From: a marine group bacterium Sva0996 bin134
GTDB lineage: Bacteria > Actinomycetota > Acidimicrobiia > Acidimicrobiales > Bin134
Direction of reading: 5' to 3'
Length of the DNA: 64,000 nt
NCBI GenBank assembly: GCA_002239105.1
Contig: MPNQ01000006.1
Coordinates: 2,595 to 66,594 of the forward strand
Numbering within the stretch: the stretch's first letter is position 1; each line of letters begins with the position of its first letter. A program made the position numbers and the translations under genes. Of this stretch, positions 1,761 through 22,731 are shown piece by piece. Under the pieces are notes generated by a model that was given only the letters and a program-made list of their open reading frames with translations, was not told the origin of the DNA and searched no databases.

Positions 1761-4523
1761 TCAGAGCATCGATTCTTGGACGGGGCCCGTGGCCGCGGCT
1801 TCGGTGGCGTCGGCGCCGGAGCGTAGGTTGGGCCAGGCGGTGATGAGCCCGTTGTAGGCCCCGGCTTCGGCCGCCCACCCCTTGTCGTTGGCCTTCTGAT
1901 ACAGGAGATAGGCGAGCTGGCGAGCTCGCTCGCCGTAGCCGCCCAGAGTGTGCAGCAGTTCAGACGCTTCCGACTCCGACCTCTCCAAAGCGGCAATCAA
2001 ATGCTGCACCGACTCCCAAACCGTACGCCGAAGATCATCAACGGGTGAATAGCCCGGTGGAAGCTCCGAGCGCTCATAGAGCCGGAACTTGCCTGCGCGG
2101 GCCTCGCCGATACCCGATTCCTCGACCCCCGCCAGCGACGTGTTCTTCGCCCGGGCCACGCTGTCGGCATCCCCCGACGGCCCAGGGGTGTACCCATGCT
2201 CAGAGAACCAGGTGAGCGCGAACCGGGTGTCAGCATCCAGTTCCGCATCCTCCCCATCGAGCACCTCGCCCAACACATCGTTGATGATGGCCAACGCCGC
2301 CGACACCGGCATCGCCGACCCATCCGCCTCCACCACCTTGGCATACCGCGAGAACACCTTGATCCCCGGCCCAATAGTGGACTGCGCCATGTCTACCGGG
2401 GCGATGTTGCCGGATTGGAGGATGCGCACCGCGTCGGGAAGCTCCTCGCGCAACGCCGCGATGAACTCGCCGCGCGTGGCGAGCGATGCTTGAGCAGACC
2501 GAGGGCGACAAGCCAGCACAATGGAGGATGCCAAAGCGTTAGTTCCCCGGGCGAGGATTCGCCCCGGAGATTCTGTCCTGATCGGCCAAGTAGCGTTGAC
2601 CTGCAGTCCAGCGTCAAGCACTGCTTGGAGGAATGTGTCCCAACCGGTGGCGCGTACTTCGCCGTCGCGGGTCTCAGTTGCCTTGTAGGCATAGTAGATC
2701 GTAGTTGGCACATCGGCATTCTGGTATTGGACTACTTGGGCCATGAAATCGGCCATACCCGACTCAAAATGCTCCTCAGCCTCTTGCCTTGAACCGGCCC
2801 GATATCGGTTGGCGATCAATTCCTCGGCCTTCGGCGTCAGCAGAGTGGAGCACTCGTCGGGCCACACCCTGAAGAGGTTCTTGCGCAACCAGACGTAGAA
2901 GAAATCTGATAGATCAGCGTAGGAGATGTTGTCGTAATAGGGCGGATCGGTAGAAATGATCGAACCTGCACACTCGCGCACGCGGGCTCGAGCGTCTCGC
3001 TGCACCGCCTCCGCCTCGCCCTGGGCAAGAAAAGCGGCAAGTGATTTGCACACTTTTGACAGGCAAAGTGACCAACTACCCCCAGAATTAGAAAACGGAT
3101 TGGCCTCTGCGAAATCCCAGGTCATAGGAATCGCCTGCCTTGCAAAGGACTCCCGAAGAGCTCCCCGGTCATTCATCCAGGTCACAATGCTTGACCAAAG
3201 GTTTGCGCACTTGTCCACAGCGAATGCCAGATAGGTGACCACAGCGTCCGCGTAGGCTGTTGCTCTGCGACCGCCTTCGTGAAACCGCACGCCGTCGCTG
3301 GCCATGCCCACGGCAAGTGCATCCGAGGCCACCCGCTCAGCCACCTCTCCAAGCAGATCAGAGAATGTGGTCAACGCTGTGAGCTGACGAGGTGTAAACA
3401 GCTTCCACCACTCGTCGAATCCATATACGTAGACGGTGCCTCCAGTCAGCTTCTCTGGGTTCTTGCCATCCGGCTTCCATTCAGGTTCTCCACACTTTGC
3501 GGCTTCCCGTTCTTCAGGCATGACAGGGAGGTAGCTACGGCCGCCAACTCCTTCGGCCACCACAGCCATCAATTGCTGGCTCATACGTCCGGCGCGGCTT
3601 TCAGTCTTGATGTATTCGCCGGAAATCGCCGCTCCAGTGGCGATGCAGGTGCCATTGCCCCGGTTCACAGTCCTTTCGTATGCCGGTTCGCCGCCATCCC
3701 GAATCACGTAGCTGATGGTCTGGGTTTCCCTGTCGATGACCGGCTCAATCCATACCTTCGGCTTGCCCGGACGGTTGGCCAGCGTCCAAGACGCCACCAG
3801 AGGCACATGGCCCGACCAACTCGGATCGGGCGACTCCACGGTTCGGGCCCAGATCCACGCAATTGGTGTCAGCTTTTCACCGCTGGGTCCGGTGGCACTT
3901 GGATAGAGGTGCCCAATGCGCCGCTCAGCCTCATCTCTCATCCAATGGCCGTACGCCTCCACATCGGCTGCCAACCCCTGAGCCCGCTCCCATGTGGTGA
4001 GCGTCTTGTCAATGTCTGGATGAACTGGTGGTACGCCAGCAAAGCGTGGCGGGATCTCGATCATCGCCTTGTTGATCAGCACCGCTACCGGATTCAGGTC
4101 ACCTGCCAGGGCCTTCAACCCAAGTCGTTGAGCTTCCAGAGGAATCGCCCCACCTCCGGCAAAGGGGTCAAGAATCGGCGGGGGCCCATCCGGAAAGCAC
4201 CGGTCAATCTCCACACGTGCCTCAGCAAGCACCTCAGGGTTATCGGAGTTTTCCCACTTCACCAGCCGCTCCAAGATGCGAAACAGCCGCTGCCGTTCAG
4301 CCTCCTGCTCATCAGGCGTCAACGATGTATCCCCCGATGGATCATCCACCAGAGACGCCCAAATCACCGCCCGAGCCGCCGCCAACGGCCGCCGAGCCCA
4401 CCACAAGTGCAATGTCGACGGATGCCCATGCCGAATCGACTTCTCCCTCGCCGCCTCCGCATTGATCACCGCCAACGGCAACGCCACCTCAATCAGCTTC
4501 GGCCGATACGCCTCGCCTGCCAC
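1761..4523 (-). CDS. DUF1156-family (COG1743) DNA methyltransferase, N6-adenine/N4-cytosine type
   Basis: The N-terminus KLIEVALPLAVINAEAAREKSIRHGHPSTLHLWWARRPLAAARAV is the DUF1156 signature. SAM-binding motif I is ILDPFAGGGAIPLEA and catalytic motif IV is STDPPYYDNISY. Length 920 aa, GTG start. Confidence 0.9.
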   Translation of the reverse strand: MAGEAYRPKLIEVALPLAVINAEAAREKSIRHGHPSTLHLWWARRPLAAARAVIWASLVDDPSGDTSLTPDEQEAERQRLFRILERLVKWENSDNPEVLAEARVEIDRCFPDGPPPILDPFAGGGAIPLEAQRLGLKALAGDLNPVAVLINKAMIEIPPRFAGVPPVHPDIDKTLTTWERAQGLAADVEAYGHWMRDEAERRIGHLYPSATGPSGEKLTPIAWIWARTVESPDPSWSGHVPLVASWTLANRPGKPKVWIEPVIDRETQTISYVIRDGGEPAYERTVNRGNGTCIATGAAISGEYIKTESRAGRMSQQLMAVVAEGVGGRSYLPVMPEEREAAKCGEPEWKPDGKNPEKLTGGTVYVYGFDEWWKLFTPRQLTALTTFSDLLGEVAERVASDALAVGMASDGVRFHEGGRRATAYADAVVTYLAFAVDKCANLWSSIVTWMNDRGALRESFARQAIPMTWDFAEANPFSNSGGSWSLCLSKVCKSLAAFLAQGEAEAVQRDARARVRECAGSIISTDPPYYDNISYADLSDFFYVWLRKNLFRVWPDECSTLLTPKAEELIANRYRAGSRQEAEEHFESGMADFMAQVVQYQNADVPTTIYYAYKATETRDGEVRATGWDTFLQAVLDAGLQVNATWPIRTESPGRILARGTNALASSIVLACRPRSAQASLATRGEFIAALREELPDAVRILQSGNIAPVDMAQSTIGPGIKVFSRYAKVVEADGSAMPVSAALAIINDVLGEVLDGEDAELDADTRFALTWFSEHGYTPGPSGDADSVARAKNTSLAGVEESGIGEARAGKFRLYERSELPPGYSPVDDLRRTVWESVQHLIAALERSESEASELLHTLGGYGERARQLAYLLYQKANDKGWAAEAGAYNGLITAWPNLRSGADATEAAATGPVQESML

Positions 4524-4672
4524 GAACGGCCACGGTAGCCAACTGGGGCGGCAAGATTATGGCGCTGGCCGGAACCGCAGCACCTGATCGATAACTTTAG
4601 TGCTATTTCAATATATTTGCTGTACTGTAGAATACGAGTGGATCGAGTAGCCATGAGGACAGAAGCAGCACC

Positions 4673-5089
4673 TTGTCACCCCCGTACTACAACAGCTTGC
4701 CGGCGCAGTTTCAGTTGGAGTTGGAGACAGCTCGCCGAATCGGCCTCACGCCTGTCGAGATTCCCAGCACAGCATTCGATGCCTTGGCGGCCGAAGGTGA
4801 GAGGATGATCTACGTCGTAGCGGGCGGCCAACTGTTGGCGTCCAAGCGACAAGTGGGCGTTGAGCACGTCTCCCATGCGGTGCTCGCCCATGACGGCCCC
4901 GTACAAGCCGCAGGCGAGTTTGAAATCGTGGGTGAAGATGGGGTGCTCGTTGTGTCGGCGCTCAACAACATGAGCGGCCACTACCAGCCAGCCGCAGAAA
5001 GCCTCGAAGTTGCCCAACAGGCGTTCGAAGCCGCTGGAATCCGTATACGTTCGGGTGCTGTTCACCGCTACGATTTTGAGGCACCATGA
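4673..5089 (+). CDS. Hypothetical small protein (138 aa from TTG 4673, or 94 aa from ATG 4805), coupled to the 1470-aa gene
   Basis: Protein-like composition. Its TGA stop overlaps the ATG of the next gene (ATGA at 5086-5089). Conserved-looking core: HVSHAVLAHDGPVQAAGEFEI...LNNMSGHYQP. I cannot assign a family. Confidence 0.55.
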   Translation: MSPPYYNSLPAQFQLELETARRIGLTPVEIPSTAFDALAAEGERMIYVVAGGQLLASKRQVGVEHVSHAVLAHDGPVQAAGEFEIVGEDGVLVVSALNNMSGHYQPAAESLEVAQQAFEAAGIRIRSGAVHRYDFEAP

Positions 5090-8000
5090 CTGCTACTACA
5101 ACGCCGAACCCGCCCGTCGAACCGACACAAGAGATAGTTAACTCCGCGCTGCTGCGCATCGAAGAGGCGACGGACTACTACGCATTCGAGCAGGCATGGA
5201 TCGATGGACTGCGCAGGCTGTCCGCCTCAAGCGCCGGCGACATGAGAGTGCTGCTATTGGCAGAAGCTGGCAGGCGGCTCAATGTGTTTGACGAGGTGGC
5301 GGACGACGTGGCGCGGCGGAGCTGGCTTCGCCAAGTGGTCGAAGAGGTGCGGTTGCGCGGTGACGCAGTCCAGGGTGGAGAGCTTGCGGCAGTGGCCGCC
5401 AAAGAACTCCGAGAGGCCTTTGCTCGCGCCCGTCCAGAGATTGCCGATCTGCGGGCTGCGGTAACTGGCGGGGAGAACTTACAAGAATTCGCTATTCGAT
5501 GTCCCCTCGCTGCGGATCGAGTCCGTGACCTCGGAAGGATTGCTGAAGGGCTGAGCAGCAGCGGACTGCTGGCCCTTGGGCCTGCCGAAGACCACGGTAT
5601 GGCCCGCGACCTCGCGAATGCACTGACCCCTCCGGTTCCACTTATCCCCTCGGTTCCTGAATCCCTGCGGGTGACTCGGGACGAACTGCTGGTGTGGGCG
5701 AAAGCGGGCGGCTCGGACCAAGTGCTGCCCCGCCTGGTTCGCAGCCTCATTGCCGAGACTGAGCCGTCCGCTGAGTGGCTCGATATGCCTGCGGGCACCG
5801 CGGTCACATCGTCCGGTTGGGACGGCATCGTGCGATGCTCACGAGGCAATCGCTACGTGCCAGCCGGTCAGTCGGTCTGGGAGTTGTCAACCAAACAGAA
5901 CGGCTCGCATGAGAAGGCTGGCCGCGACTACGCGAAGCGGGTCACCACATCACCACGTGAAGAACGAACCGATTTGGCTTATGTGGCCGTTGTGTCAGCC
6001 CCGTGGACCAAAGCCCGAGAATTCAAGCAGTACCGCACGGCGAAGGGCGACTTCCGGCAGGTGGAGGCCCTGAACGTCGACAGCTTGGAGGATTGGTTGG
6101 AGTGCGCGCCCGCCACCACGGTATGGCTGCGCGAGCAGATGGGGGCTCCGGTGGCAGGAATCGGCTTGCTCTCGCCATGGTGGTCAAAGTGGTTGGAATC
6201 GACCAGGACACCCCTTGACGAGGGGTTTGTACTGGCAGGACGCGAACAGGCCGCGGGGAACTTGCGTGACCGCTGCCGACAGGGTCGGGGGGTCGTAACC
6301 GTTGGGGGCCGCATCCAGCGCGACGAGATCTTGGCGTTCGTTGCGGCTGCGCTTGTCGCAGGAGACACTTCGGAGGCATCGTTCGGCGACGTGCTGTACG
6401 TGACTACCCACGACACCGCACGTCGTCTGTTCGCTGTGGATGCACTTTCGGGCAACCAGGGGCGCAGCCGTCTGACCCCCGCGCTGACGGTGGTCGTACC
6501 GTCGGCAGAGTTCGCTGAACATCTACCCGCAGGGAGCCCGCATCGAATGATCGTGCCGGTCCCAGGCTCTACACAGGCCGAGATTGTCCTTGATGCCGTC
6601 GACTCAGGACTAGTGGCCCAACGATTGCAAGACAATCGAGTGGAGCTTCATGCGGCACACAAGCTCGGAGGAATGGCTCGAATGAGCCTGATGGCACTCA
6701 GAAGGCACCTCAGCGTCGACCCCGCTTTGCACACGCCGGAATGGGCAAAGGGGCAGGCCAGCAAGATGCTGCGACGGAGCCTGCTGCTCGGCGGCTGGAA
6801 TGAATCCCATGAGGGCGACCGCAAGACCGTAGAGGGGTTCACCGGCCTTCCATCCGATGCGGTTGCCGAGGCTTTGCGACAGTTCGACGCTGGTGATGCC
6901 CCCATGACTACGACCGGCGAACTGGTCCATACCGTTTCACCGGCGGATACTTGGCTGCTGTTGCACGATCAGCTTTCTGCCAGCGACGTGGCGGAATTCG
7001 CGGAGGTCGCCCACGAGGTACTGACTGATGCCGATCCACTGTGGGAGCTAGACAGGGAAGAAGTACTCCGTGCCCAGATTGAGGGAATCCAGGCGAGGTA
7101 CTCGTCTCAGCTCAAACAGGGAGTCGCAACTACTCTTGCACTGGCTGGCAGCAAACCGTCAGCGTCGGGCGGGGCCACTTCGTCGAGTTCGGGAATGGCT
7201 GAGGGCATCACTCGAAGATTGCTCAGATCAGCAATGGACGACGAAAGCCCTAGAACCTGGGTTGCCGTTTCCGACACATTGCCGCTTCTAGCGGAGGCCT
7301 CACCCGAAGCCGTGCTCGAAGCCCTGCGTACCTGCCTCGCCGAGTCGCACGCCTTCGCGCAAGCTATGTTCACCGATGGCGACTCTGACTGGTTCGGCCA
7401 TACCGCTTCGTCGCCCCATTTTCGCATCCTTAATGCTCTGGAAGTCCTCGCGTGGTCGCCTGAGCATCTATTGGCCACCGCGGACGTGCTCTCTCGGCTA
7501 GCCCAGATCGACCCCGGAGGCCGGTACTCGAATCGACCGGATGAGAGCCTCGCCTCAATCATGTGTCCGTGGCTACCCAACACATCGGCAGACTTTGAAG
7601 TTCGTCTCGCAACAGTCCGGATGTTGCGACAATCCCATTCAAATGTCGCCTGGGCGTTGATGCTGTCGATGCTGCCAGAACGCCATGGTGTCCAGCACCC
7701 GAGCGAAATGCCTCGATTCCGCGACTGGAGGCCAGGTCAGCCAGCGGTGACACAGCGAGAGTACGCCGAAACAACCATTGCAGTCGCAGAGATGCTCATT
7801 GAGGACGTCGGTGTGGATTCTGAGCGCTGGACAGCTTTGGTCAGACACATCGCCGATTTACCAGGCGAGGCGCGTCGCAAGGCAATCGCAGGAATCAGCA
7901 GAATTGCTGCAACAGGCGCCGATGAGACATTCAAGTCGAGGATGTGGCCGCTGTTGCGGGACCTAGTGGCTCGTCACCGCCGCAACAGTGAAACCAATTG

Positions 8001-9498
8001 GGCGCTATCGGAAACCGATTTGGAATCGCTAGAACAGGCACAGGACCTTCTTCGTCCGGCTGCGCCTGCTGTCTCCTATGGCCAACTGTTCTCATCGGGC
8101 CTGCTGCAAATCGATGGTGTCGAGGCGGCAAATGGGTACGAGGAGTTCCAAGCGACGTTACGGCCAAAGCAGGCGGAAGCAATAGGGGCAGTCTTTGCCG
8201 GCGGCGGTCTCGAGGCGGTGTTCGAATTCGCCGGTTCGGTGGACGAGCCTCGCCGAGTTGGCTCGGCCCTAGCCAGATACAACTCGGCCCTTGACAAGAA
8301 CATTCTCAGGGCCATGGAAGCCGCATCCGGGGCGGTCACGGAAGTCGCCTTGGGCTATTTCGACCACCGGTTCGCCGAACTGCGATGGGAAGGACTGGAC
8401 GGGCTTATCTCAGAGAACCATGTGTCGCCGAGGGTCGCCGCTGACGTGCTGCGGGCACCGCCGCCGGTGGAGTTGCCCTGGACTCGGGTAGACGCTTGGG
8501 GTGAAGAGGTTGCGACCGAGTACTGGAGTCGGGTGGGCTACTACGACCTCGGGATTCCACAGGAGTTGAGCCAACTGCTCGAGGTGTGTCGTCGACTGCG
8601 GAAGGCGGGACGCCTCGAATTGGCGGGGAACCTGCTCTCGATCCGCTCGACCACCCATGAGTCTCATTCGGACTTCGCCGACGAGGCTGCGGAGTGGCTT
8701 GAGCAGCGGATCAAGCGACCTGATACCGAGACCGAATATAACGACATGACCTACTGGCGATTGGTCTCCCTATTCAAGGTGCTGGACAAGCACCGGGACC
8801 ACCTCGGCACCAGTCGAGTCGCCATCCTTGAGTGGCACTACCACCCGCTCCTGCACCACGACCCAGATTTCAGTGCCCCAAACCTGTATCGGGAGCTGGC
8901 TTCTGACCCCGAACTCTTCGCCCAGTTTGTTGAGTGGGCTTTCAAACCAGCCACCGCTACGCCGGATGAGCGACCTCCGTTGACCGAAGCCCAACAACAG
9001 ATGGCGCTCAGCGCTTACCAACTATTGCGTAGCTGGCCTGCCTCGCAGTTCGTACCCGCACTCGACGACGGCGGCGCGCTGGACGCTGCTTCGCTCCAAG
9101 CTTGGATTGACAGCGCTCGTTCACGTTTGGCCGCAAGTGACCGATCTACCATTGGCGACGAGATGATCGGTGCCGCCCTCGCCGCGTCCCCCAAGGACCC
9201 GGACGGCGAGTGGCCTGGCCTTGCTGTCCGCAACCTACTGGAACGACTGCAATGCGACAGCCTTGAGGGAGGATTCCTAATGGCCGTTCGAAACCAACGC
9301 GGCGTCACGTCCCGCTCCTTGACGGCCGGCGGTGAGCAAGAGCGGCATCTCACCGAGAGCTACAAGGAACAGAGCCGCCGATTCCAGGAATGGCCCCGCA
9401 CAGCGGCCATCTTTAGCAAGCTCGCCCGCAGCTACGAACACGAGGCCCGTCTTCACGACCGCGAAGCCGAGACCGTCCGCCGAGGCCTACCGACATAG
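5086..9498 (+). CDS. Giant (1470 aa) defense-island protein: N-terminal helical extension, variant Mrr/PD-(D/E)xK-like module, long helical-repeat C-terminal region, no P-loop
   Basis: One uninterrupted ORF with protein-like composition throughout. Residues ~200-340 (LPRLVRSLIAET...SSGWDGIVRC...GQSVWELSTKQ...YVAVVSAPW...VEALNVDSLEDWLE) align by eye with the N-terminal nuclease module of the 1384-aa STAND protein (FEELACTLIEE...GDPDGGREG...CAWQAKY...YLVVLPIDL...VEFALIGKHELVKAL). There is no GxxxxGK[ST] anywhere. Confidence 0.75.
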   Translation: MTATTTPNPPVEPTQEIVNSALLRIEEATDYYAFEQAWIDGLRRLSASSAGDMRVLLLAEAGRRLNVFDEVADDVARRSWLRQVVEEVRLRGDAVQGGELAAVAAKELREAFARARPEIADLRAAVTGGENLQEFAIRCPLAADRVRDLGRIAEGLSSSGLLALGPAEDHGMARDLANALTPPVPLIPSVPESLRVTRDELLVWAKAGGSDQVLPRLVRSLIAETEPSAEWLDMPAGTAVTSSGWDGIVRCSRGNRYVPAGQSVWELSTKQNGSHEKAGRDYAKRVTTSPREERTDLAYVAVVSAPWTKAREFKQYRTAKGDFRQVEALNVDSLEDWLECAPATTVWLREQMGAPVAGIGLLSPWWSKWLESTRTPLDEGFVLAGREQAAGNLRDRCRQGRGVVTVGGRIQRDEILAFVAAALVAGDTSEASFGDVLYVTTHDTARRLFAVDALSGNQGRSRLTPALTVVVPSAEFAEHLPAGSPHRMIVPVPGSTQAEIVLDAVDSGLVAQRLQDNRVELHAAHKLGGMARMSLMALRRHLSVDPALHTPEWAKGQASKMLRRSLLLGGWNESHEGDRKTVEGFTGLPSDAVAEALRQFDAGDAPMTTTGELVHTVSPADTWLLLHDQLSASDVAEFAEVAHEVLTDADPLWELDREEVLRAQIEGIQARYSSQLKQGVATTLALAGSKPSASGGATSSSSGMAEGITRRLLRSAMDDESPRTWVAVSDTLPLLAEASPEAVLEALRTCLAESHAFAQAMFTDGDSDWFGHTASSPHFRILNALEVLAWSPEHLLATADVLSRLAQIDPGGRYSNRPDESLASIMCPWLPNTSADFEVRLATVRMLRQSHSNVAWALMLSMLPERHGVQHPSEMPRFRDWRPGQPAVTQREYAETTIAVAEMLIEDVGVDSERWTALVRHIADLPGEARRKAIAGISRIAATGADETFKSRMWPLLRDLVARHRRNSETNWALSETDLESLEQAQDLLRPAAPAVSYGQLFSSGLLQIDGVEAANGYEEFQATLRPKQAEAIGAVFAGGGLEAVFEFAGSVDEPRRVGSALARYNSALDKNILRAMEAASGAVTEVALGYFDHRFAELRWEGLDGLISENHVSPRVAADVLRAPPPVELPWTRVDAWGEEVATEYWSRVGYYDLGIPQELSQLLEVCRRLRKAGRLELAGNLLSIRSTTHESHSDFADEAAEWLEQRIKRPDTETEYNDMTYWRLVSLFKVLDKHRDHLGTSRVAILEWHYHPLLHHDPDFSAPNLYRELASDPELFAQFVEWAFKPATATPDERPPLTEAQQQMALSAYQLLRSWPASQFVPALDDGGALDAASLQAWIDSARSRLAASDRSTIGDEMIGAALAASPKDPDGEWPGLAVRNLLERLQCDSLEGGFLMAVRNQRGVTSRSLTAGGEQERHLTESYKEQSRRFQEWPRTAAIFSKLARSYEHEARLHDREAETVRRGLPT

Positions 9499-9683: not shown

Positions 9684-10967
9684 TCACATGAACATTCGAT
9701 AGGGATAGGCGCTTCGCGGGAGATCCGGCACATTTGCGATGATCCGGGCTAGGCGCTGTGAATAGCGAATCGTAACTGGGACTGGGTCGTACAACGCGTC
9801 GTTGTTCCAGTCCATCTTTGTGAGAGCTAGGAGTTCGGATGCGATGACTTCAAGGGGCCCGCGACCCATCTGCCTGGTAAGGACCAAGGGAGATGGGATA
9901 CTCTTCCCACCCTGAAAGAAGCTGCTCCCTCGTTGTGCTACCGAGGGAGCATTCCCAGCCACCCAAAGCAGTGCTGAAGTTCCCGAGAGGGGGACCATCG
10001 TCCCACGGTGCACGGGATACCCATCGGGCTGGCTCTTGCTCCCTTGTTTCTGCGGTGCCTGAAGCCAGACTCCCCGCCACTTCACGTCCGTGGTCACCTT
10101 CACACACTCAACTTCTTCCACGGCGACCAGTGCATCGGACACGCCGGCAAGCTCTTCCTCCTTGAAGTCCGTAGTCTTGTGTACAGCCACTCGCTTCGGT
10201 ACCTGGCCACCGTTGCGGCGCCTGTACATATCCAGGCTCCTTGCCAGAACAGCCCGCATGTCCGATCGGCTGAGGTATGGATTACGCCGAGCGTCCTCAG
10301 AATTGTCGAGGGGGTCTCGAGCGTCGTATGCCACGAACTGCATACCGCCGCCGTCCGCATCGAACAACTGGGAGCAACAGGTTACGAACCTGGCCTCCTT
10401 CGGGTTGCCCCGGAGAGCATAGGCAAGCCCTATGTAGGCGCTTTCCGAGGGAACCCCTGGAAGCGGAGCTAGTCGCCACGGCGTCCCGCCAGCTTTGACA
10501 TAGAGAGCGATGGCTAACCGCCACGAGAGTGATGCCACATATGGAAAATCAAATGTGCGGTCGTTGATGACCTGCGTAGGCATTGACAGCTCTGCGCCAA
10601 TCGCCTTTAGCTCGTCGTGGGCGTCGAAGCCCTCACCATGGAGTCCAGGTTCCCAACCATCGGGCAAGTGGACAACTGCAACATCGAACTGGTCCCTAAC
10701 ATCTGCCAGTCGCCGGAGATTCTGTGATATTGCTCGGCGGACTAACTCATGGGGAGGTCCATCCCCGAGTTCATCTAGCTGAGATGGCCAGTCCAGCCGT
10801 GTGCATTCGGGGGCTGGAACAAGGGGTACGCCAAAGAGCGGCTCAAACCCAGGATACTCGAGGACGTAGTCGCGGCGATCCGAGGGCCGTTGTGTCTGCC
10901 TCAGGTTGCCGAGGACCTTTCTGCGTCCCTCGCTGCCCGAATCTGGGCCTACGATGGCGACTCGCAC
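9684..10967 (-). CDS. Short prokaryotic Argonaute (MID + PIWI only), predicted catalytically inactive
   Basis: 427 aa. MID 5'-end pocket pattern is H..K/Q/K (FDAHDELKAIG, MPTQVIN, LYVKAGGTPWRL). PIWI core is AYIGLAYAL...RVAVHKTTDF, where active Agos carry GxDV and RDG. The Ago-like C-terminal tail is YPYRMFM. GTG start, with a stop just upstream, so it cannot be longer. Confidence 0.85.
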   Translation of the reverse strand: MRVAIVGPDSGSEGRRKVLGNLRQTQRPSDRRDYVLEYPGFEPLFGVPLVPAPECTRLDWPSQLDELGDGPPHELVRRAISQNLRRLADVRDQFDVAVVHLPDGWEPGLHGEGFDAHDELKAIGAELSMPTQVINDRTFDFPYVASLSWRLAIALYVKAGGTPWRLAPLPGVPSESAYIGLAYALRGNPKEARFVTCCSQLFDADGGGMQFVAYDARDPLDNSEDARRNPYLSRSDMRAVLARSLDMYRRRNGGQVPKRVAVHKTTDFKEEELAGVSDALVAVEEVECVKVTTDVKWRGVWLQAPQKQGSKSQPDGYPVHRGTMVPLSGTSALLWVAGNAPSVAQRGSSFFQGGKSIPSPLVLTRQMGRGPLEVIASELLALTKMDWNNDALYDPVPVTIRYSQRLARIIANVPDLPRSAYPYRMFM

Positions 10968-13340: not shown

Positions 13341-13429
13341 GGCAGAGCCCTCCCAGCCATACGATAGCAATCTTGTTTCTAATTTCGTCAGATTTATACG
13401 AAATCACCGTGCAGAATGCTGTTTGTTGC

Positions 13430-14270: not shown

Positions 14271-17200
14271 ATGCCAATGAGCCCCCGATTGCCCGACATC
14301 GACTTCAGGCGCATCCGACCCTACGGTTCTCCCGCATCGCGGGATGGTGGGTTCGAGGAGTTGGCCTGCACCCTGATCGAGGAGGCGGTCTGCGAATGGC
14401 CCGAAGGCACCGAGTTCGCCCGCTTTGGCGATCCCGACGGGGGCCGCGAGGGCAGGGCGACTCTGCCCGACGGCACGGTCTGTGCTTGGCAGGCCAAGTA
14501 CCTGTTCCTCTTCGACGCGTCGGCAACCAGCCAAATCGAGCGGTCGGTCGAACGGGTGCTGCAAAACGAGCCGATGTTGTGCCGGTATCTGGTGGTGCTC
14601 CCAATCGACCTGCCGGCAGGCGACACGCCAGGGCGCACATCGGCCCGTTATCGCTGGGAAAACAAGGTCGGGGAATGGCGGGAATCGGCACTAGCATCAG
14701 GCAGGTCGGTTGAGTTTGCGCTCATTGGTAAGCATGAACTTGTTAAGGCGCTGACAAGCCCCGGGCAGGCAGGGCGACTGCGCTACTGGTTCGACGAATC
14801 ATTCATGGATGGTCCCTGGTTCCAGTACCGGCTCGACGAGGCCATCGAGAAGGCGGGTCCTCGTTACTCCCCCGATGTCCATATCGGAGTGGAGGCAGCA
14901 CAAGTCTTGGAGGGGCTGGGCCGCACTGATCGGTTCACAGCAGAGTGGCGAGAATATTTGGCAGTTCTCCGGGAGAGTCGCCCGGGGCACTGGACAGCGC
15001 CCGAAGGCGACACGGGAGAGCTTGCTGAAGCGCTGTCTGCCTGCAAAGCCGCTATTGAAGAGGTCGACAGCGCGATCAGCTCGATCATTTTGGCACTCGG
15101 CGGCTACGGAGATCTGCCCGCTCCGGACAACGAGATTCAAGTTGCCCAAGAGGAGATTTGGAACATACTCGGGTTGCTGCGTGCCAACCATCTGTCGAAG
15201 ACCGGCTTCTACGTGGGCGACGCGGCCTTCTTGCACCGTGATGCGACTCGGGCGTTAGGCGCGCTCGACAACCTGGCAGCACTCGCTGGCTCGATGTCGA
15301 CCGGTGCGGCGCGGGTAGGCAAGGCGCTGATTGCTGGCAAAGCGGGGACAGGAAAGACCCATCTGTTCTGCGATATCGCCAAGGTGCGGGTTGAGACCGG
15401 GTGCCCCACCGTTTTGGTCATGGGCCAGGACTTCGATCAGCGGGCACCTCACCTCCAGATCCCCGAGTTGACGTCATTCGATGGGTCTGCCGAGGAGGAG
15501 GTGGAGGCGCTGGCTGCGGCTGCTGAGGCGTCGGGCGTCGTGGGGCTGCTGATGATCGATGCTTTGAACGAAAGTGAGCGCCCTGAGGGGTGGAATGACA
15601 ATTTGCGAGTGCTCCAGCGGATTGTCGCCCGGCACAAGCAGGTTGCCTTGGCGGTGAGCTGCCGCTCCGAGTTCGTGTCTGAGGCGGTGGGTGATACCAC
15701 CATGCCGAATATCGAGCACGAAGGCTTCGGCGAGGCCACTGAAGCAGCGGTCGTGCGGTATGCCCAGCACTACGACATTGGGTCGGTGAGCTTTCCGGTG
15801 CTGAATTCCGAGTTCTCCAATCCGCTGTTCCTAAGGCTGGCTTGCGAAGCGCTGGCAACGCTGGGCCGCGACAGTTTCCATCTGGACTCTGCCGGACTCA
15901 CCACGGTCTGCGACGCTTTCCTCGAAGCAGTCAACGACCGTCTCTCCCACCGCGAACGCTGCGACTACGACCCGGCGCGCCGCCTCGTACAGCAGGCGGT
16001 TCGCGTCCTGGCCGAAGCCACTGAAAGTCCGCCCATCGAGTGGGAGGCAGCGGAACAACTGCTCCAAGACATCCACCCCTCTGCTGGATGGTCCAAGTCT
16101 CTTCTTAAGGGCCTGATCGATGAGGGAGTCCTCATCAAGACTCCAGCCGGGGTCGGCTTCGGCTACCAGCGACTCGGTGACCTCGCCCGAGCCGCTCTGC
16201 ACTCCGAGAAAACCGACGCGGAAATCAGGCAATGGGCAACGAGCCTCGGCCGCCGAAGGTGGAGCCACAGGGGAGTTCTCGGAGCGCTGGCCGTCATGCT
16301 CCCCGAGACAAGAGGCGTAGAGCTTATCCAAACCCTCGCCGATGACGAGGGAAAGGTCAGCCGCGATCAACTCGATCTGTTCGTGGACAGCCTGGTCCTG
16401 CGGTCCGCGGGGGCAGTCAGCACAATCACCGTCGGGATTGTAAGGCAATTGCTAGGCAACGATGACCTGCGGGAGCTGCTATTCGACCAGCTTGTGCGGC
16501 TGTCCTGCGTTCCGGGCCATGCTCTCAATGCCGATCTGTTCCATGCATGGCTGATGGAACAAGATCTGGCCGAGCGCGACGCGCAATGGTCCCTCTTCCT
16601 CGTCGACCAGACGGAGTACCAGACACCGGTGCGGCGCCTGATCAACTGGGCACGAGATAACAGCGGCGGTGCCAAACCGGAGGTCAGGCGGCTAGCGGGG
16701 GTGATGCTCGGATGGATGCTGACAACCTCCGACAACCGCGTCAGAGACCAGGCGACTAAGGCCCTAGTCGCGCTCTTCGAGCCAGCACCCGACACCGCCG
16801 CAGAAGTGCTGCGGTCATTTCGTGGGGTAGACGACCCCTATGTGCTTGAGCGCCTCGCCGCAGCTGCCTGTGGAGCCGCGCTGCGCTCGTCCGACTCCAC
16901 AGCCCACCACAAGCTCGCCAACGGAACCACTGACATGTTCGCTGACGGGTGGCCCGCCCACCTGCTCACACGCGACTACGGCCACCGCATATTTCGGCTC
17001 GCAGTGAGCACGGGCTGGAATCCGCCTGGGGGAGGCAGTCCAGACGGGCATCCATACGGCGGACCGCCCTACGGGGCAGAGCTTCCTGTCCCCACCCGTA
17101 CCACTAGCCAGATCGAAACCATGGCCGGACCACCCAACTACCGCTACGGGTCAATATGGCGCTCCATAGATGATGGCGATTTCGGGAGATACATTTTGGC

Positions 17201-18425
17201 ACCGGCCCTCGGCCACTTCGATCTCGACCGCCAAGGGGATCTGATCGACTTGGCGGAGCGAACGGTGTTCGACCGGGTTGTCGAACTCGGATGGACCCCG
17301 GAGGTATTCCAAAAGGTTGACAGATCGCTGTCTTCGACATCGGGAAGAGATCACGCCGTAGAGCGTGTCGGCAAGAAATACCAGCGGATCGCGTTCTACG
17401 AACTACTGGGACGCCTAGCCGATAACTACGCAATACGAGAATGGGGCGACAGCCCAGCGATGCCGTACAGCCACGCCAAACAGTTGGTCTACCGCGACAT
17501 CGACCCCACTGTCCTCACCCGAAAGCCCGAGACCGACCCACCAACACCGTGGTTCTCGCCGGCACAGGCAGCCTTCGATCCGAAAGAGGCCGGGAAAGAG
17601 CCGACCGAAATCGAAGGGACTCCCGACCCCCTCGACTTGATTGCCGCGACGGACCAGAACAGCGAATCGTGGCTCGTCCTCGAAACATACGCCGACTGGA
17701 AAGAACCACTGGCTCCCGAGCAGAAGGCGCTCCGCCCGCCCGAAGTCTGGGTCCGCCTGCAAATCTGCGGCTACCTGATCCCAGAGGACAAGCTCACCGA
17801 AATCCGCGAGTGGGCCGAGGGTAAAGACTGGAGCGAATTCGAGATACTCAAATCGCCTGACGTCTACAACGCACTTCTAGCGTCTCACCCTGACGACCCG
17901 GCATGGGCACAAGCCTCCACCGAACCCGACCGCTGGCTGCGTCAATCGGAGCAACTGCCATGCGATCTGTTCCCTGCCGCAGCCCAATACGCCGGAACCG
18001 GAACCGACAGAGATTATTCTGCCGCCCAAGAAACCATCGGATACGTCCCAAGCGGTCGGCTCCACAACCTGCTCCGCCTCACCCGCTGCGGCGACTTCGA
18101 GTGGAAGAACCAACAGGGCGTCACCATCGCAAGAGATCCGTCCGTCACCGTCGGCGGACCCGCCGCACTGCTCGCGCACCGCGACGAAACAGTCGAGCGG
18201 CTTTCAGAAGCAGGGCTGACGATCTTTTGGACTGCCCTAGCTGCAAAAGACCTCATACAGCAGGATTTTGGCCAGCCCGCCAACCCTCGATGGGTTACCG
18301 CCAGCGCAGCATACGCCCTTGACAACAGCGACGTGGTCCTCTTGTATGCCACTGCCCGGTCCTATGTGGGCCCGACAGAGACCGACAAACAGTCTTGGAG
18401 CGACATACTGAGAGACCGTGGCTAG
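14271..18425 (+). CDS. STAND-type P-loop NTPase with N-terminal Mrr-like (D...QxK) restriction-endonuclease domain and HEAT-like/helical C-terminal region (Avs-like architecture)
   Basis: Nuclease motifs: GFEELACTLIEE, FGDPDGGREG, CAWQAKYLF. Walker A is KALIAGKAGTGKTHLFCD and Walker B is VGLLMIDALNESE. A HEAT-like repeat is DNRVRDQATKALVALFE...DDPYVLERLAAAACGAAL. Length 1384 aa. Confidence 0.85.
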   Translation: MPMSPRLPDIDFRRIRPYGSPASRDGGFEELACTLIEEAVCEWPEGTEFARFGDPDGGREGRATLPDGTVCAWQAKYLFLFDASATSQIERSVERVLQNEPMLCRYLVVLPIDLPAGDTPGRTSARYRWENKVGEWRESALASGRSVEFALIGKHELVKALTSPGQAGRLRYWFDESFMDGPWFQYRLDEAIEKAGPRYSPDVHIGVEAAQVLEGLGRTDRFTAEWREYLAVLRESRPGHWTAPEGDTGELAEALSACKAAIEEVDSAISSIILALGGYGDLPAPDNEIQVAQEEIWNILGLLRANHLSKTGFYVGDAAFLHRDATRALGALDNLAALAGSMSTGAARVGKALIAGKAGTGKTHLFCDIAKVRVETGCPTVLVMGQDFDQRAPHLQIPELTSFDGSAEEEVEALAAAAEASGVVGLLMIDALNESERPEGWNDNLRVLQRIVARHKQVALAVSCRSEFVSEAVGDTTMPNIEHEGFGEATEAAVVRYAQHYDIGSVSFPVLNSEFSNPLFLRLACEALATLGRDSFHLDSAGLTTVCDAFLEAVNDRLSHRERCDYDPARRLVQQAVRVLAEATESPPIEWEAAEQLLQDIHPSAGWSKSLLKGLIDEGVLIKTPAGVGFGYQRLGDLARAALHSEKTDAEIRQWATSLGRRRWSHRGVLGALAVMLPETRGVELIQTLADDEGKVSRDQLDLFVDSLVLRSAGAVSTITVGIVRQLLGNDDLRELLFDQLVRLSCVPGHALNADLFHAWLMEQDLAERDAQWSLFLVDQTEYQTPVRRLINWARDNSGGAKPEVRRLAGVMLGWMLTTSDNRVRDQATKALVALFEPAPDTAAEVLRSFRGVDDPYVLERLAAAACGAALRSSDSTAHHKLANGTTDMFADGWPAHLLTRDYGHRIFRLAVSTGWNPPGGGSPDGHPYGGPPYGAELPVPTRTTSQIETMAGPPNYRYGSIWRSIDDGDFGRYILAPALGHFDLDRQGDLIDLAERTVFDRVVELGWTPEVFQKVDRSLSSTSGRDHAVERVGKKYQRIAFYELLGRLADNYAIREWGDSPAMPYSHAKQLVYRDIDPTVLTRKPETDPPTPWFSPAQAAFDPKEAGKEPTEIEGTPDPLDLIAATDQNSESWLVLETYADWKEPLAPEQKALRPPEVWVRLQICGYLIPEDKLTEIREWAEGKDWSEFEILKSPDVYNALLASHPDDPAWAQASTEPDRWLRQSEQLPCDLFPAAAQYAGTGTDRDYSAAQETIGYVPSGRLHNLLRLTRCGDFEWKNQQGVTIARDPSVTVGGPAALLAHRDETVERLSEAGLTIFWTALAAKDLIQQDFGQPANPRWVTASAAYALDNSDVVLLYATARSYVGPTETDKQSWSDILRDRG

Positions 18426-19194: not shown

Positions 19195-22100
19195 TCAGCA
19201 GGGGGCTTGGGCGTCCTTGAGGAGGGCGGCGACGGTGAGAGGAACGCCGGGTTGGGCGAAGTGGAGGGTGACGTCTCGGAAGGGGTCAAGTAAGTAGCGG
19301 ACTGTGGGTGGCTCGGTGGGGTTGTCGGGGACGGAGACGACGGCTAGGCGCCAGTGGTCGGGGAGGGACTTGGCTTTGCTGATCTGCTGGGCACTGATGT
19401 GGATCTCGGTGGTTCGGGGAAGGTGGCCCTTGACCTCGATGAAGTAGTGGGTGCCGGTCTTGGGGTCGATTGAGAGCACGTCGTAGCCGGGGTTGCTGTG
19501 GGCCTGAGCTTCGGGATTGCGGCCGAGGGCTCGCTCAGCTTCTAGGACGGCGGCGACGGCTCGGCGGTCGGTCTCCATCTTGTCGGCGGTTTCTTCGGGG
19601 TCGGGCGGTGTGCCGCGGAGCTGATCAATGAGCCCCTGAGGCACGACGATGGCAGCGCCGACGATGGTGGGTGGGCTGTTGTGGAGGTCGTCTTCTCGGT
19701 CCAGTTCCAGGCGACGTCGAGTCAGGCGGGCAGCTAGATCGTCGGCCCTGGCGCGGGCACGGCCCGAGTTGAGGCGGGGCTTTTGGCCGGCGAGCTCCTG
19801 TTTCTTTAGTTCCTCGGCTCGCTGGTCCCAGTAGCGGATTTCGGCTTCGAGGCGTTCCCGTACTGCCTCCTTGACCTTCGCCACTCGAGCTTCGGTTACA
19901 CGAACGATCTCCTCGAAGTGCGGCTGAGAGAGGTGTTCTATGGCCCAGCTCTTGGCCGTCTCTTCAGCGGTGTGGTCGGCCCAGTCCAAGTCGAGTTGGC
20001 CTTTGAGAAGCGCGCGGTCTTCCTCGACTAGCGGTGCATAGCCGATATAGGGCTCGTTCCCAGCGCTCTTGGCGTTGCCCTGTTGGTCGATCTCCACATA
20101 CTGGAACCGACGAGATACCACCTGGCGATGGCCGTGGACTTGTCGCCCGTCGGTGACGGAATGATCTAGATAGACCAGAAGGCGGGGATCGGTAGAACGA
20201 TCCTCGGGGTCAACCAGAGTCGCTCCCCGGACCAGCGTGTGCTCGTGGTCGGCGAGCACTTTGTTGATGACTGCGGTGAGAAGTGGCGTGCCCGGTGAGA
20301 TCAGCTCGGCCCGGTCGCCTCCGTCGACCTGGATGCAGGCTTTATCAAAGGTCACCCGCTCGTAGCGGTCGTGCACCGGGCCGAGCGCTAGATGAGCATG
20401 CGAGCGGATCGCCGCTGGGATTCGGGTGATCTCGTAGCGGCCTCGTTCCCGTCCGGTTATGCGGCCGCCATACTGGCGAAGGGCTTCGGAGAAGAAGGCA
20501 TGCACAAACCACGGCTGCAACTTGCGGGCTCGGGCACGCTCCATATCCTCTCGGATCTTGTCGTTGGCCGCCGGATCGGCAAGACCGCCGACCAGAGCCC
20601 GTTTTTCCAACACATCCACCAGTTGATTGCCGATGTCACCCTCAATCACTTCTTGCATGTATTCGAGGTGGGCAGGATCGTCGTCGGCGGTGATGGCCTT
20701 GAGAAGCAATTCTTGGAGGGAAGTGTTGATATGAGAGTCGCCTAGCACGTCATACACCTGGTCGCCGTAGACGCCCCGCTGCTGCTCGATCTTCTCAAAC
20801 AATCGCGTGAATACAACACCTTCTCTGGTCTCGTGTGCGACCAAGTTCCACAGGTGGCAGGGCCGCTGCTGACCTATGCGGTGGATGCGACCGAACCGCT
20901 GTTCGATACGGTTCGGGTTCCATGGCAGGTCGTAGTTGACCATCATGTTGGCCACTTGAAGGTTGACGCCCTCACCAGCAGCATCAGTGGCCACCAGTAC
21001 TCGCACCGTGGGGTCGACCCGGAACCGGTCTTGGATGGCCCGGCGGTCGTGACGCTTGATGCCGCCGTGGATCACTGCCACCGCCTCGGGCCGGCCCAGC
21101 TCGGCGGTGACCCTTTCGGCCACGTAGTCGAGGGTGTCCTTATGCTCGGAAAAGATGATCAGCTTCCGAGGACCGGAAGGCGTGTCGTCGCCATCAGGGT
21201 TCTCTCCCTTGCCGGTTCGGAACTGCTCCGAGCGCAGCAGCCCCCGAAGCTGGATCCACTTCTCGTCGACACCACTGTTGCGCACTGCCTCGGCCAGCGT
21301 GGCCAGTCCTTCTAGTTCAACGACCTCGGCCTCGATCTCCTCGGCAGTGGCTGAAGCGGTGGCAGCGTCTATGACGTGGTCCTCAAGCTCCTCCAGCTCT
21401 ACATCGTCGAAGTTGTCGAAGTCGAAATCCTCCAGGTCGGCGAATCTCACTCCTTTGGGCAGGTCGGTCACCTGCACTGGTCTGCCGCCAGCGGTCAGGC
21501 GGCGCAGCTCAGCTGCTTGGTCTGCCAGTCGGTCTCTTCGACGGCGCAGAGAGTGGTAGATGGCCGCGGGGGACGAAGCCAGACGGCGCTGGAGCGCGGC
21601 CAGGGCGAACCCGAAAATGATCCCTCGCCGGCGGTCCCCCTCTTCCTGCATACGGCTTGCCCGGTCCATGCCGTTTCGCACGTATTCGGTGACCGCCTCG
21701 TAGAGGTCTTGTTCGGGATCCGACAGCTCGAAGTTGAGGCTCTTGGCAAACCGCTGAGGAAACAGACGCCTACCCTCGAAGGTGGTCAAGTTCTCCTTCA
21801 CCAGTCGGCGCATCACGTCGTCGGTTTCGGGCATCTCGTCGTCGCGCAGCCGCCCAGCGAACCGCTCGGGGTCGATGAGGGTCATGAAAGCCAAGAAGTC
21901 TTCGTTCTTGCCGTTGTGGGGAGTGGCCGACAGCAACAGGAAGTGACGGGTGCGCTCGCGCAGCACTTCGCCCAACTCGAAGCGCTTGGTCTTGCGTAGT
22001 TCGTCGCCGTAGAGGTGGGCCGACATTTTGTGGGCCTCGTCGACGATCACCAAGTCCCAGTCGGCCACCTTAAGCTTTTCGATGAGGTCCTCGGCCCGCG

Positions 22101-22731
22101 ACAACTGGTCGACGCGGGCCACCAGCAGGTTCTTCTCCAGAAACGGGTTGCCGGTGCGCGACGCCTCGACCGCCGAGCGGGACATCAGCTCGAAGCTGAG
22201 GCCGAACTTGTCCCACAGCTCGTCCTGCCACTGCTCCACCAGGCTGCCGGGGGCGACGATTAGGCAGCGGGCCACGTCGCCCCGAAGCATGAGCTCTCGG
22301 ATCAGCAAACCCGACATGATGGTCTTGCCAGCACCGGGGTCGTCGGCCAGCAAGAACTTGAGCGGGCGCTGCTCCAAGAAGCGGTTGTAGACGGCGTCGA
22401 TCTGGTGGGGGTAGGGCTCGATATTGGAGGTGTCCACCGCGGCATAGGGGTCGGACAGGTGAGCCGACTTCATGCGACGGGCTTCCGATGCCAGGCGGAA
22501 CGCGGCACCGTCGGCGTCGAAACTCCACCGCTGTTTGGACACCTCACCGATCCCGGCCAGGTCGTCCACCGTGATGATGCGCTCGCCGAGGCTCCCGCTG
22601 GCCGAGCGGTAGGTCAGGGTGGCCGAACCAGCCCCGTGGACTTCCAGGGCCACCACTGTCACGTCGCCGTCGGCCACCACTCCCGACAGCCGTATTCCAG
22701 CTGTGAGGTAGTCGAACTTCAGGCCAGTCAT
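19195..22731 (-). CDS. SNF2-family helicase with C-terminal DUF3883-like PD-(D/E)xK domain
   Basis: Helicase motifs: YPHQIDAV, LLADDPGAGKT (I), VIVDEAHKM (II), LLLSATPHNGK (III), VLVATDAAGEGVNLQ, YDLPWNPNRIEQRFGRIHRIGQ (VI). The C-terminal nuclease-like part is GYDVLSIDPKTGTHYFIEVKGH. Length 1178 aa. Confidence 0.9.
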   Translation of the reverse strand: MTGLKFDYLTAGIRLSGVVADGDVTVVALEVHGAGSATLTYRSASGSLGERIITVDDLAGIGEVSKQRWSFDADGAAFRLASEARRMKSAHLSDPYAAVDTSNIEPYPHQIDAVYNRFLEQRPLKFLLADDPGAGKTIMSGLLIRELMLRGDVARCLIVAPGSLVEQWQDELWDKFGLSFELMSRSAVEASRTGNPFLEKNLLVARVDQLSRAEDLIEKLKVADWDLVIVDEAHKMSAHLYGDELRKTKRFELGEVLRERTRHFLLLSATPHNGKNEDFLAFMTLIDPERFAGRLRDDEMPETDDVMRRLVKENLTTFEGRRLFPQRFAKSLNFELSDPEQDLYEAVTEYVRNGMDRASRMQEEGDRRRGIIFGFALAALQRRLASSPAAIYHSLRRRRDRLADQAAELRRLTAGGRPVQVTDLPKGVRFADLEDFDFDNFDDVELEELEDHVIDAATASATAEEIEAEVVELEGLATLAEAVRNSGVDEKWIQLRGLLRSEQFRTGKGENPDGDDTPSGPRKLIIFSEHKDTLDYVAERVTAELGRPEAVAVIHGGIKRHDRRAIQDRFRVDPTVRVLVATDAAGEGVNLQVANMMVNYDLPWNPNRIEQRFGRIHRIGQQRPCHLWNLVAHETREGVVFTRLFEKIEQQRGVYGDQVYDVLGDSHINTSLQELLLKAITADDDPAHLEYMQEVIEGDIGNQLVDVLEKRALVGGLADPAANDKIREDMERARARKLQPWFVHAFFSEALRQYGGRITGRERGRYEITRIPAAIRSHAHLALGPVHDRYERVTFDKACIQVDGGDRAELISPGTPLLTAVINKVLADHEHTLVRGATLVDPEDRSTDPRLLVYLDHSVTDGRQVHGHRQVVSRRFQYVEIDQQGNAKSAGNEPYIGYAPLVEEDRALLKGQLDLDWADHTAEETAKSWAIEHLSQPHFEEIVRVTEARVAKVKEAVRERLEAEIRYWDQRAEELKKQELAGQKPRLNSGRARARADDLAARLTRRRLELDREDDLHNSPPTIVGAAIVVPQGLIDQLRGTPPDPEETADKMETDRRAVAAVLEAERALGRNPEAQAHSNPGYDVLSIDPKTGTHYFIEVKGHLPRTTEIHISAQQISKAKSLPDHWRLAVVSVPDNPTEPPTVRYLLDPFRDVTLHFAQPGVPLTVAALLKDAQAPC

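Follow-up and report, generated by a model that had tools for sequence, protein, structure and literature searches.

A candidate two-gene anti-phage module from a marine Acidimicrobiales genome combining a polymorphic-toxin-like domain with an Avs-like giant protein devoid of Walker motifs

The DNA under study, a stretch of 64,000 nucleotides from contig MPNQ01000006.1 (assembly GCA_002239105.1) of the marine Acidimicrobiales bacterium Sva0996 bin134, which as a whole is referred to as the window, harbours two overlapping open reading frames (ORFs), here named the small and the giant gene, whose products are the subject of this computational analysis. The small ORF (4673..5089, plus strand, 138 amino acids (aa)) starts with TTG, and the giant ORF (5086..9498, plus strand, 1470 aa) starts with an ATG that shares the tetranucleotide ATGA (5086-5089) with the TGA stop of the small gene and is preceded by GAGG (5078-5081), 4 nt 5' of the giant ATG. 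This overlap had been pointed out in an initial annotation made from the sequence alone; it was confirmed and found to be kept in 27 of 30 homologous loci, whereby each of those loci possesses a G-rich Shine-Dalgarno-like stretch upstream of ATGA. Because of this conservation the overlap is not a matter of chance, and the small and giant genes are supported to form a conserved, translationally coupled pair. The window DNA is present whole in six sponge metagenomes; the contigs from the runs of 'organism A' are fragmentary and of low depth, none of them spanning the junction between both genes. The features of the pair and its upstream region are listed below, with residue numbers referring to the giant protein.

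4588..4617, plus strand: promoter-like site, one sigma-70-like match (TCGATA-18-TATATT)
4673..5089, plus strand: small gene, putative free-standing homologue of a toxin domain (ORF, alignment, model, profile search)
5078..5089, plus strand: translational-coupling junction, GAGG (5078-5081) followed by ATGA (sequence and its conservation)
5086..5655, plus strand: residues 1-190, all-helical N-terminal extension (modelled helices 14-179, co-variation)
5671..6120, plus strand: residues 196-345, predicted PD-(D/E)xK-like (Mrr-like) nuclease module (modelled topology, conservation)
6148..6945, plus strand: residues 355-620, degenerate STAND-like nucleotide-binding oligomerisation domain (NOD) as modelled (model, Foldseek, motif-free alignment)
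6760..9495, plus strand: residues 559-1470, predicted sensor module of about 900 aa (hhalign, collinear weak PD-Lambda-4_A matches)

The promoter-like site resides within the AT-rich divergent intergenic stretch (4524-4672) between hmaB and the small gene and, as its sigma-70-like match is no commoner than the shuffled expectation, counts as weak evidence.

Direct searches of the Pfam, NCBIfam, PADLOC and PDB sequence collections identified no usable match for either protein, and the lone JAB match (E 0.026) was rejected as noise. Structural modelling with AlphaFold, for which the multiple alignments consisted of database proteins, covered residues 1-700 of the giant protein (predicted local distance difference test (pLDDT) 85.5). 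Within this model the N-terminal extension is formed by helices 14-179, which is in line with the helical extension of about 200 aa that had been described initially. The modelled PD-(D/E)xK-like core also bears out the nuclease-like module that was proposed to follow: an alpha-beta-beta-beta-alpha-beta unit is formed by alpha1 (210-225), three beta strands (229-233, 247-251 and 261-268), alpha2 (274-288) and a last beta strand (298-303), with D246 located ahead of beta2, E266 within beta3 and K277 on alpha2. D246, E266, K277, D281 and R285 are invariant or nearly so family-wide, i.e., in Bacteria and Archaea, and E224 (alpha1) is conserved in actinobacterial members only. On the basis of the model, the module is read as a variant PD-(D/E)xK nuclease which, since its polar triad is under selection, is probably active, although activity is unproven.

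The nuclease module is followed by a Rossmann-like alpha/beta domain (359-500), whose nucleotide-binding-domain-like (NBD-like) part comprises beta1 (402-408), a short loop and alpha1 (412-423), and by a helical domain and a winged-helix-like element reaching up to about residue 616. The earlier assignment of all remaining 1100 aa or so to helical repeats hence does not hold for residues 355-620, which were modelled as alpha/beta NBD-like, helical and winged-helix parts, but is kept for the later part of the protein, as residues 559-1470 probably are helical repeats. When the model was compared to the PDB using Foldseek, Avs3 (8dgc; E 1.1e-5, probability 1.0, 697 columns) and Avs4 (8dgf; E 1.3e-4, probability 1.0) were identified as best matches, with CED-4, clamp-loader subunits (RFC), ORC2 and AVAST5 ranking after them. 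With Avs3 and Avs4 on top, the STAND likeness spans the whole effector-plus-NOD architecture, and the Avs tripartite layout of N-terminal effector, central NOD and large C-terminal module is found in the giant protein. Residues ~200-700 share the order of folds (nuclease, NBD, helical domain, winged helix) with Avs3 and Avs4 (8DGC, 8DGF) and with the Avs2 protein encoded in the window, and like Avs2, Avs3 and Avs4 the giant family occurs in defence islands; however, the giant protein differs from all three in lacking detectable sequence similarity and NTP-binding motifs and in possessing a different sensor family. The likeness to the N-terminus of the window STAND protein (Avs2), as claimed initially, therefore stands at the level of the fold, where it was understated, since nuclease, NBD, helical domain and winged helix together resemble Avs3 and Avs4.

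The sequence kinship to Avs2 which had been read from a by-eye alignment was not recovered. The aligned motifs do fall on alpha1, beta2, beta3 and beta4 of the model, but BLASTP of the giant protein against Avs2 gave E > 0.5, and hhalign was non-significant with the family profile as well as with the profile of the N-terminal module; the comparison of the latter with the Avs2 N-terminus (E 0.19), albeit non-significant, reproduces the by-eye alignment. A PDB profile search using the N-terminal module alone yielded chance matches only. Between the N-terminal modules of both proteins, agreement is limited to fold and topology. The lack of a P-loop was confirmed: there is no GK[ST] tripeptide in the giant protein, the beta1-alpha1 loop of all 30 aligned relatives is about 3 residues long and free of Walker A, the Walker B position is non-acidic, and neither Walker A nor Walker B was found in any family member. 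As the P-loop is the defining feature of STAND proteins sensu stricto, the pair is outside this group.

For the C-terminal part of the giant protein, a PADLOC scan of 31 diverse giant relatives revealed matches to PD-Lambda-4_A in 15 (best E 5.3e-7). These weak matches are collinear along the 1283-position model (residues 599-739 of locus L079 align to positions 596-737, residues 147-202 of L035 to positions 151-205), whose length equals that of the short giant forms (~1250-1280 aa) described below, and tblastn of plasmids for E. coli Avs8A recovered only giant-family members. PD-lambda-4 was renamed Avs8, whereby Avs8A, a protein consisting of an Mrr nuclease and a P-loop STAND part, is triggered by HK97-fold major capsid proteins (MCPs) and possesses the small partner Avs8B (PMC12236752). 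MCP sensing by Avs8 was confirmed by Lee et al. 2026, where KpAvs8 was described to have degenerate Walker A and B motifs (PMC13581612); the accessions of the giant family have no match in the text of that paper. Both Avs8 and the pair are two-gene operons of a giant and a small gene. In both cases the large protein starts with an Mrr-like nuclease (as predicted for the pair), continues with a central NOD and ends in a long C-terminal sensor, which in Avs8A is TPR-like. They differ in that loss of the Walker motifs concerns the whole giant family but only few members of Avs8, in that the 190-aa N-terminal extension is undescribed for Avs8, and in their small partners, which here is a polymorphic-toxin-like domain, whereas the best HHpred matches of Avs8B are zinc-ribbon and CoiA N-terminal models (PMC9519451).

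A second link was obtained when an enterobacterial plasmid copy served as query of a DNA search, which led to E. coli chromosomes. In E. coli NZ_CP195804 (L108:5675-8793), gapS6a is followed by a gene for a 930-aa hypothetical protein, both located at a hotspot of a P2-like prophage, flanked by ogr and tail genes. GapS6a (106 aa) matches Pfam HetE-N (7e-39), a domain named after the N-terminus of a fungal NLR. Comparison of the giant family with the E. coli 930-aa protein using hhalign aligned giant residues 559-~1460 to residues 36-917 (probability 100%, E 3e-96), and in an E. coli 1180-aa protein from an island flanked by insertion sequences (IS) the match covers giant residues 551-1460 (E 7e-123), while the 280-aa N-terminus of this protein is unrelated. 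Because of this homology to E. coli proteins with other N-termini or partners, the C-terminal ~900 aa of the giant protein are taken, at the level of sequence, as a discrete module which was recombined with different effectors, either fused or separately encoded. GAPS6, for which a defence function has been validated experimentally (10.1101/2023.03.28.534373), consists of two genes and, like the pair, has the small gene upstream and the large sensor gene downstream. The homologous E. coli protein is named by its adjacency to gapS6a and not by identity to GAPS6b, the published Vibrio GAPS6b being described as TPR plus PINc; furthermore, the E. coli large protein is devoid of a nuclease or NBD-like part, and GapS6a, a HetE-N protein, is unrelated to the small toxin-like protein (hhalign E 0.62). 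An arrangement of the E. coli L108 type, i.e., a gapS6a-like gene together with a gene for a sensor-module protein of ~920 aa, was also observed on the Buttiauxella plasmid pBTX_57 (L107, NZ_CP033075.1), just 3' of a group II intron reverse transcriptase/maturase gene (ltrA).

Concerning the distribution of the family, a word-indexed search identified 156 near-full-length relatives of the giant protein, none of them with a function name or a Pfam match and the named ones mostly originating from metagenome-assembled genomes of sponge symbionts (Ca. Poriferisodalis, Acidimicrobiaceae). Scanning species-representative genomes revealed 79 giant loci which fall into two tiers: long forms from Acidimicrobiia (48-90% identity, about 1450-1500 aa) and short forms (26-41% identity over window residues ~196-1468, about 1250-1380 aa), the hosts of which include Streptomyces, Micromonospora, Lentzea, Rhizobium, Oceanimonas, Nitrospira, Acidobacteria and Methanothrix. 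Part of the short forms possess a helix-turn-helix (HTH) domain of the XRE type where the long forms have the N-terminal extension; N-terminal XRE, HTH_3 or HTH_17 domains were observed in L058, L062, L071, L051 and the plasmid matches H1-H8, and the RefSeq label 'helix-turn-helix transcriptional regulator' on many short forms hides a putative nuclease-sensor protein of ~1250 aa. Copies of the giant family, annotated as 'HTH regulator' or 'hypothetical', are carried by 24 plasmids. Overall, the neighbourhoods of the family are highly variable and its distribution over Bacteria and Archaea is patchy. One genome (OZ244832.1) contains two paralogous pairs (L011, L029). Small or giant genes are frameshifted or truncated in several loci among L004, L010, L016, L019, L028, L030, L032 and L045, which indicates that copies of the pair frequently decay.

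The small protein, of which same-length homologues are encoded directly upstream of the long-form giants, was modelled with a pLDDT of 92.5, and its fold matches two unnamed viral BFVD models, G8DGH9 and E5EQ39 (E 6e-5 and 6.5e-4). Its invariant residues are R59, H68, P76, G81, E82, N99, S101, G102, H103 and P106, part of which make up the motif NNxSGHYxP. A profile search of 1.84 billion representatives revealed 1182 relatives, and in 83 of the top 149 the domain is located at the extreme C-terminus of a larger protein. Eight of those were scanned against Pfam, whereby seven were found to carry RHS repeats, DUF6531, PT-HINT, DUF637/Fil_haemagg or ALF repeats and none of the eight gave a Pfam match on the C-terminal tip. 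Among the residues that are invariant in the toxin tips, His64, Ser97-Gly98-His99 and Pro102 correspond to H68, S101-G102-H103 and P106 of the small protein, which is homologous over its full length to the tips of these polymorphic toxins (Rhs, CdiA, PT-HINT), keeps the invariant His, Ser, Gly and Asn, and differs from them in being free-standing and intracellular: the 138-aa ORF comprises the toxin domain alone, lacking the N-terminal delivery/repeat region. From these similarities the small protein is identified as a putative free-standing copy of an unannotated Rhs/CdiA/PT-HINT C-terminal toxin domain, and the conserved basic residue and two histidines would fit a metal-independent RNase. 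Toxin-like domains were also observed as tandem arrays of 3-4 copies or N-terminally in low-complexity, eukaryotic-looking proteins (P0183, P0184, P0208, P0226, P0324), and the toxin-domain family extends beyond bacterial polymorphic toxins.

Metagenomes were scanned for further toxin tips using a 6-sequence alignment as query. A gene of 176-199 aa without Pfam match was found directly 3' of the toxin in four out of six toxins looked up and in eight metagenome loci, with a frequent stop/start overlap between both genes; as one further copy (L087) was read from an uncalled frame, the set comprises 13 loci with 12 distinct sequences. The family, which ends on W..L.P.LP, presumably represents the cognate immunity proteins.

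L083, 8625-9206: putative immunity gene directly downstream of the toxin gene
L084, 7051-7581: the same
L086, 4268-4867: the same
L088, 5032-5616: the same
L090-L098: the same

At L081 the downstream gene (159 aa) is unrelated to this family, and in a toxin subclade (L099, L100, L102) the downstream gene is of a second type (122-132 aa).

In the pair, as with many immunity genes, the gene following the toxin domain starts at an overlapping ATGA; the partner, however, is the 1470-aa putative sensor-nuclease, and its N-terminal extension lacks detectable similarity to the ~180-aa immunity family. Presence of the small gene was found to be strictly tied to this extension. All 31 long forms that could be assessed have the small gene upstream, if its decayed remnant in L028 is included, and it is absent from each of the 47 loci without the extension, among them L024 and L034, the short forms nearest to the sponge clade (39-48% identity). 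Small gene and extension are both present in L089, too, a pair of 36% identity that stems from an unrelated run. The co-occurrence check proposed earlier thus came out in two ways: the small gene tracks the long forms carrying the extension, but a short prokaryotic Argonaute (pAgo) gene adjoins the giant gene in no more than one of the 79 loci. Given the co-occurrence and the ATGA junction, the extension occupies the position of an immunity gene, and it is inferred from these sequence relations that it may neutralise the toxin. Two apparent Rosetta-stone fusions, P0200 (small protein plus extension) and P0290 (toxin plus immunity protein), resemble read-through products or merged gene calls and were not regarded as decisive.

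Considering these data, the two genes are moderately likely to make up an anti-phage defence module which is self-contained and of the Avs kind, with STAND-type pattern recognition, and within which the giant protein probably serves as an Avs-like, nucleotide-independent sensor-nuclease that, by sequence, appears related to GAPS6b-like proteins and to PD-lambda-4A/Avs8A. The defence sensor/effector character assumed in the initial annotation is hence supported as being of an Avs-like kind, whereas its statement that neither protein can be placed in a named family no longer applies, given the relations of the giant protein just named and the homology of the small protein to polymorphic-toxin C-terminal domains. 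In the best-supported reading, one lineage of the family gained a docking extension together with a co-translated free toxin domain as second effector. Mechanistically, the C-terminal module would bind a conserved phage protein, which by analogy with Avs8 may be an HK97-fold MCP. Binding would cause oligomerisation without ATP hydrolysis, as was proposed for KpAvs8, and oligomerisation would switch the nuclease on. In the resting state the N-terminal extension, being in the position of an immunity protein, would keep the small toxin inactive, and upon triggering it would free or activate the toxin as second effector, whereby the infected cell would be killed or arrested.

Several points weigh against the pair being such a defence module. 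For every member of the family, the reading is built on sequence, models and gene context. The giant protein of the window itself reaches no PADLOC model (E > 1 against PD-Lambda-4_A), so that the link to PD-lambda-4_A depends on weak matches in relatives, and residues 700-1470 lie outside the structural model. Activation of the giant protein would have to be gated without an NTP switch. As to the nuclease module, neither PD-(D/E)xK sequence models nor PDB sequences matched it, and the lysine of (D/E)xK is replaced by Ser, Thr or Gly, which confirms the loss noticed earlier, with the invariant K277 residing on the following helix instead. For the small protein, Foldseek against the PDB revealed no fold analogue (best E 0.077). 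Finally, hhalign of the N-terminal extension against the cognate immunity proteins, 12 of which had been collected from loci of Rhs, CdiA and PT-HINT toxins, gave E 0.28-0.39, leaving the idea that the extension is a fused immunity protein unsupported at the sequence level; as this similarity is undetectable, the neutralisation step is derived from gene position and co-occurrence alone.

Among the alternatives, a possible, if rather doubtful, one takes the pair as a polymorphic toxin-immunity pair which was domesticated to act as effector stage of a pattern-recognition receptor derived from STAND proteins and independent of nucleotide. The N-terminal extension would then be a highly diverged immunity domain fused to the sensor, and a phage protein bound by the C-terminal module would, with no NTP switch in between, cause the release of a toxin that is pre-made, already bound and a member of an uncharacterised enzyme family. 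The ~900-aa module would be a mobile plug-in with interchangeable effectors, fused or separate, whether a nuclease of the Mrr-like type, a HetE-N protein or a polymorphic-toxin domain.

It is unlikely that the nuclease-like and NBD-like modules are inactive relics, which would leave the giant protein as a mere scaffold or sensor and the small toxin as the sole effector in this clade. The absent (D/E)xK lysine, the lack of family-wide conservation of E224 and the absence of Walker A and B are all compatible with it, as are the acquisition of a separate effector gene precisely in this clade and the E. coli sensor module, which without nuclease or NBD is paired with a separate small HetE-N protein. 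Opposed to this, the (near-)invariance of D246, E266, K277, D281 and R285 in Bacteria and Archaea argues for a functional active site, and the short forms are without any other effector.

That the pair is a toxin-antitoxin or addiction module which stabilises the island, with the giant protein neutralising the toxin but not sensing phage, was considered improbable. Such a module would be consistent with the toxin-like gene coming first and the ATGA overlap, both as in toxin/immunity pairs, with the strict co-occurrence of small gene and N-terminal extension and with the several decayed copies. It is opposed by the ~1250 aa of nuclease, NOD and sensor which are kept at 26-36% identity in relatives without the small gene, a conservation from which the core function of the giant protein is concluded to be independent of the toxin, and by the sensor module being common to validated or candidate phage-defence proteins.

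The genomic context of the pair raises the question of its relation to the surrounding Hma system. Adjoining the pair is the gene for the HmaB methyltransferase (920 aa, 1761..4523, minus strand, PADLOC E = 0), and that for the HmaA SNF2 helicase (1178 aa, 19195..22731, minus strand, PADLOC E = 0) closes a 14.7-kb hmaB-hmaA interval which holds the pair, the short class I pAgo (427 aa, 9684..10967, minus strand, PADLOC 7e-179), AbiLii/AbiLi and Avs2 (1384 aa, 14271..18425, plus strand, PADLOC 2e-291). AbiLii (11413-12072, minus strand) and AbiLi (12072-13370, minus strand) were assigned by PADLOC (3.7e-24 and 3.5e-89), whereby the ATPase also resembles AriA. In the window, and likewise in 13 or more related loci of sponge symbionts, hmaB and hmaA flank the pair, which is encoded on the opposite strand. 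An accessory or regulatory function within Hma is conceivable from this position, but it was rated quite improbable. Among short forms, weaker HmaA and HmaB matches adjoin L024 and a weaker HmaB match adjoins L056, and L070 is accompanied by a partial HmaA-like match only (29% over 333 aa). Many loci of the same clade, however, are without Hma, with the pair adjoining cas3, GSU0053/GSU0054-type cas genes or metabolic genes, and distant homologues reside alone on plasmids and in prophage hotspots. The slot moreover holds pAgo, AbiL and Avs2 as well, which is the behaviour of an insertion hotspot, and contigs branch at the borders of the cassette formed by the pair: those assembled from sponge metagenomes and from the runs of 'organism A' depart from the window sequence at 4502-4506, 9070 and 9663 with several different continuations, whereby the divergence at the cassette borders (4502-4506, 9663) suggests strain-level alternative cargo. 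The genes between hmaB and hmaA look like unrelated defence cargo of an insertion hotspot within a single Hma operon.

The weakest alternative, which the initial annotation had raised and which is hardly credible, holds that the adjacent short pAgo has its missing sensor/effector partner in the giant protein, together with the small one, in place of the usual APAZ-effector protein: the window pAgo does lack an APAZ-effector partner gene nearby, and the stops of giant gene and pAgo gene (9498 and 9684) do lie 185 bp apart in convergent orientation, as had been stated, an arrangement repeated in the closest syntenic relative, L002, but this adjacency is found in one of 79 loci, convergent genes share no operon, the PADLOC models for pAgo partners and APAZ matched neither the giant protein nor its relatives, and many contexts of the pair are without pAgo; the partnership was rejected on the co-occurrence data. 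The short pAgo of the window may be an orphan or part of a decaying system.

If the pair is a defence module as proposed, it would connect interbacterial polymorphic toxins with anti-phage immunity, two fields which are usually studied apart, in that the tip of a secreted toxin would be reused as a free intracellular protein and connected to a sensor through a docking extension specific to one lineage. The toxin family (>1000 representatives), its putative immunity family and the ~900-aa sensor module are candidates for curation in Pfam, PADLOC and DefenseFinder, and the Hma operon of sponge symbionts appears to contain an insertion slot which collects defence cargo. Avs/STAND receptors are thought to need an NTPase as switch. 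With a NOD fold, as modelled, that is devoid of Walker motifs, the widely distributed giant family (Actinomycetota, Proteobacteria, Acidobacteria, Methanothrix, plasmids and E. coli islands) would offer a natural way of testing whether immune receptors that oligomerise can work without nucleotide.

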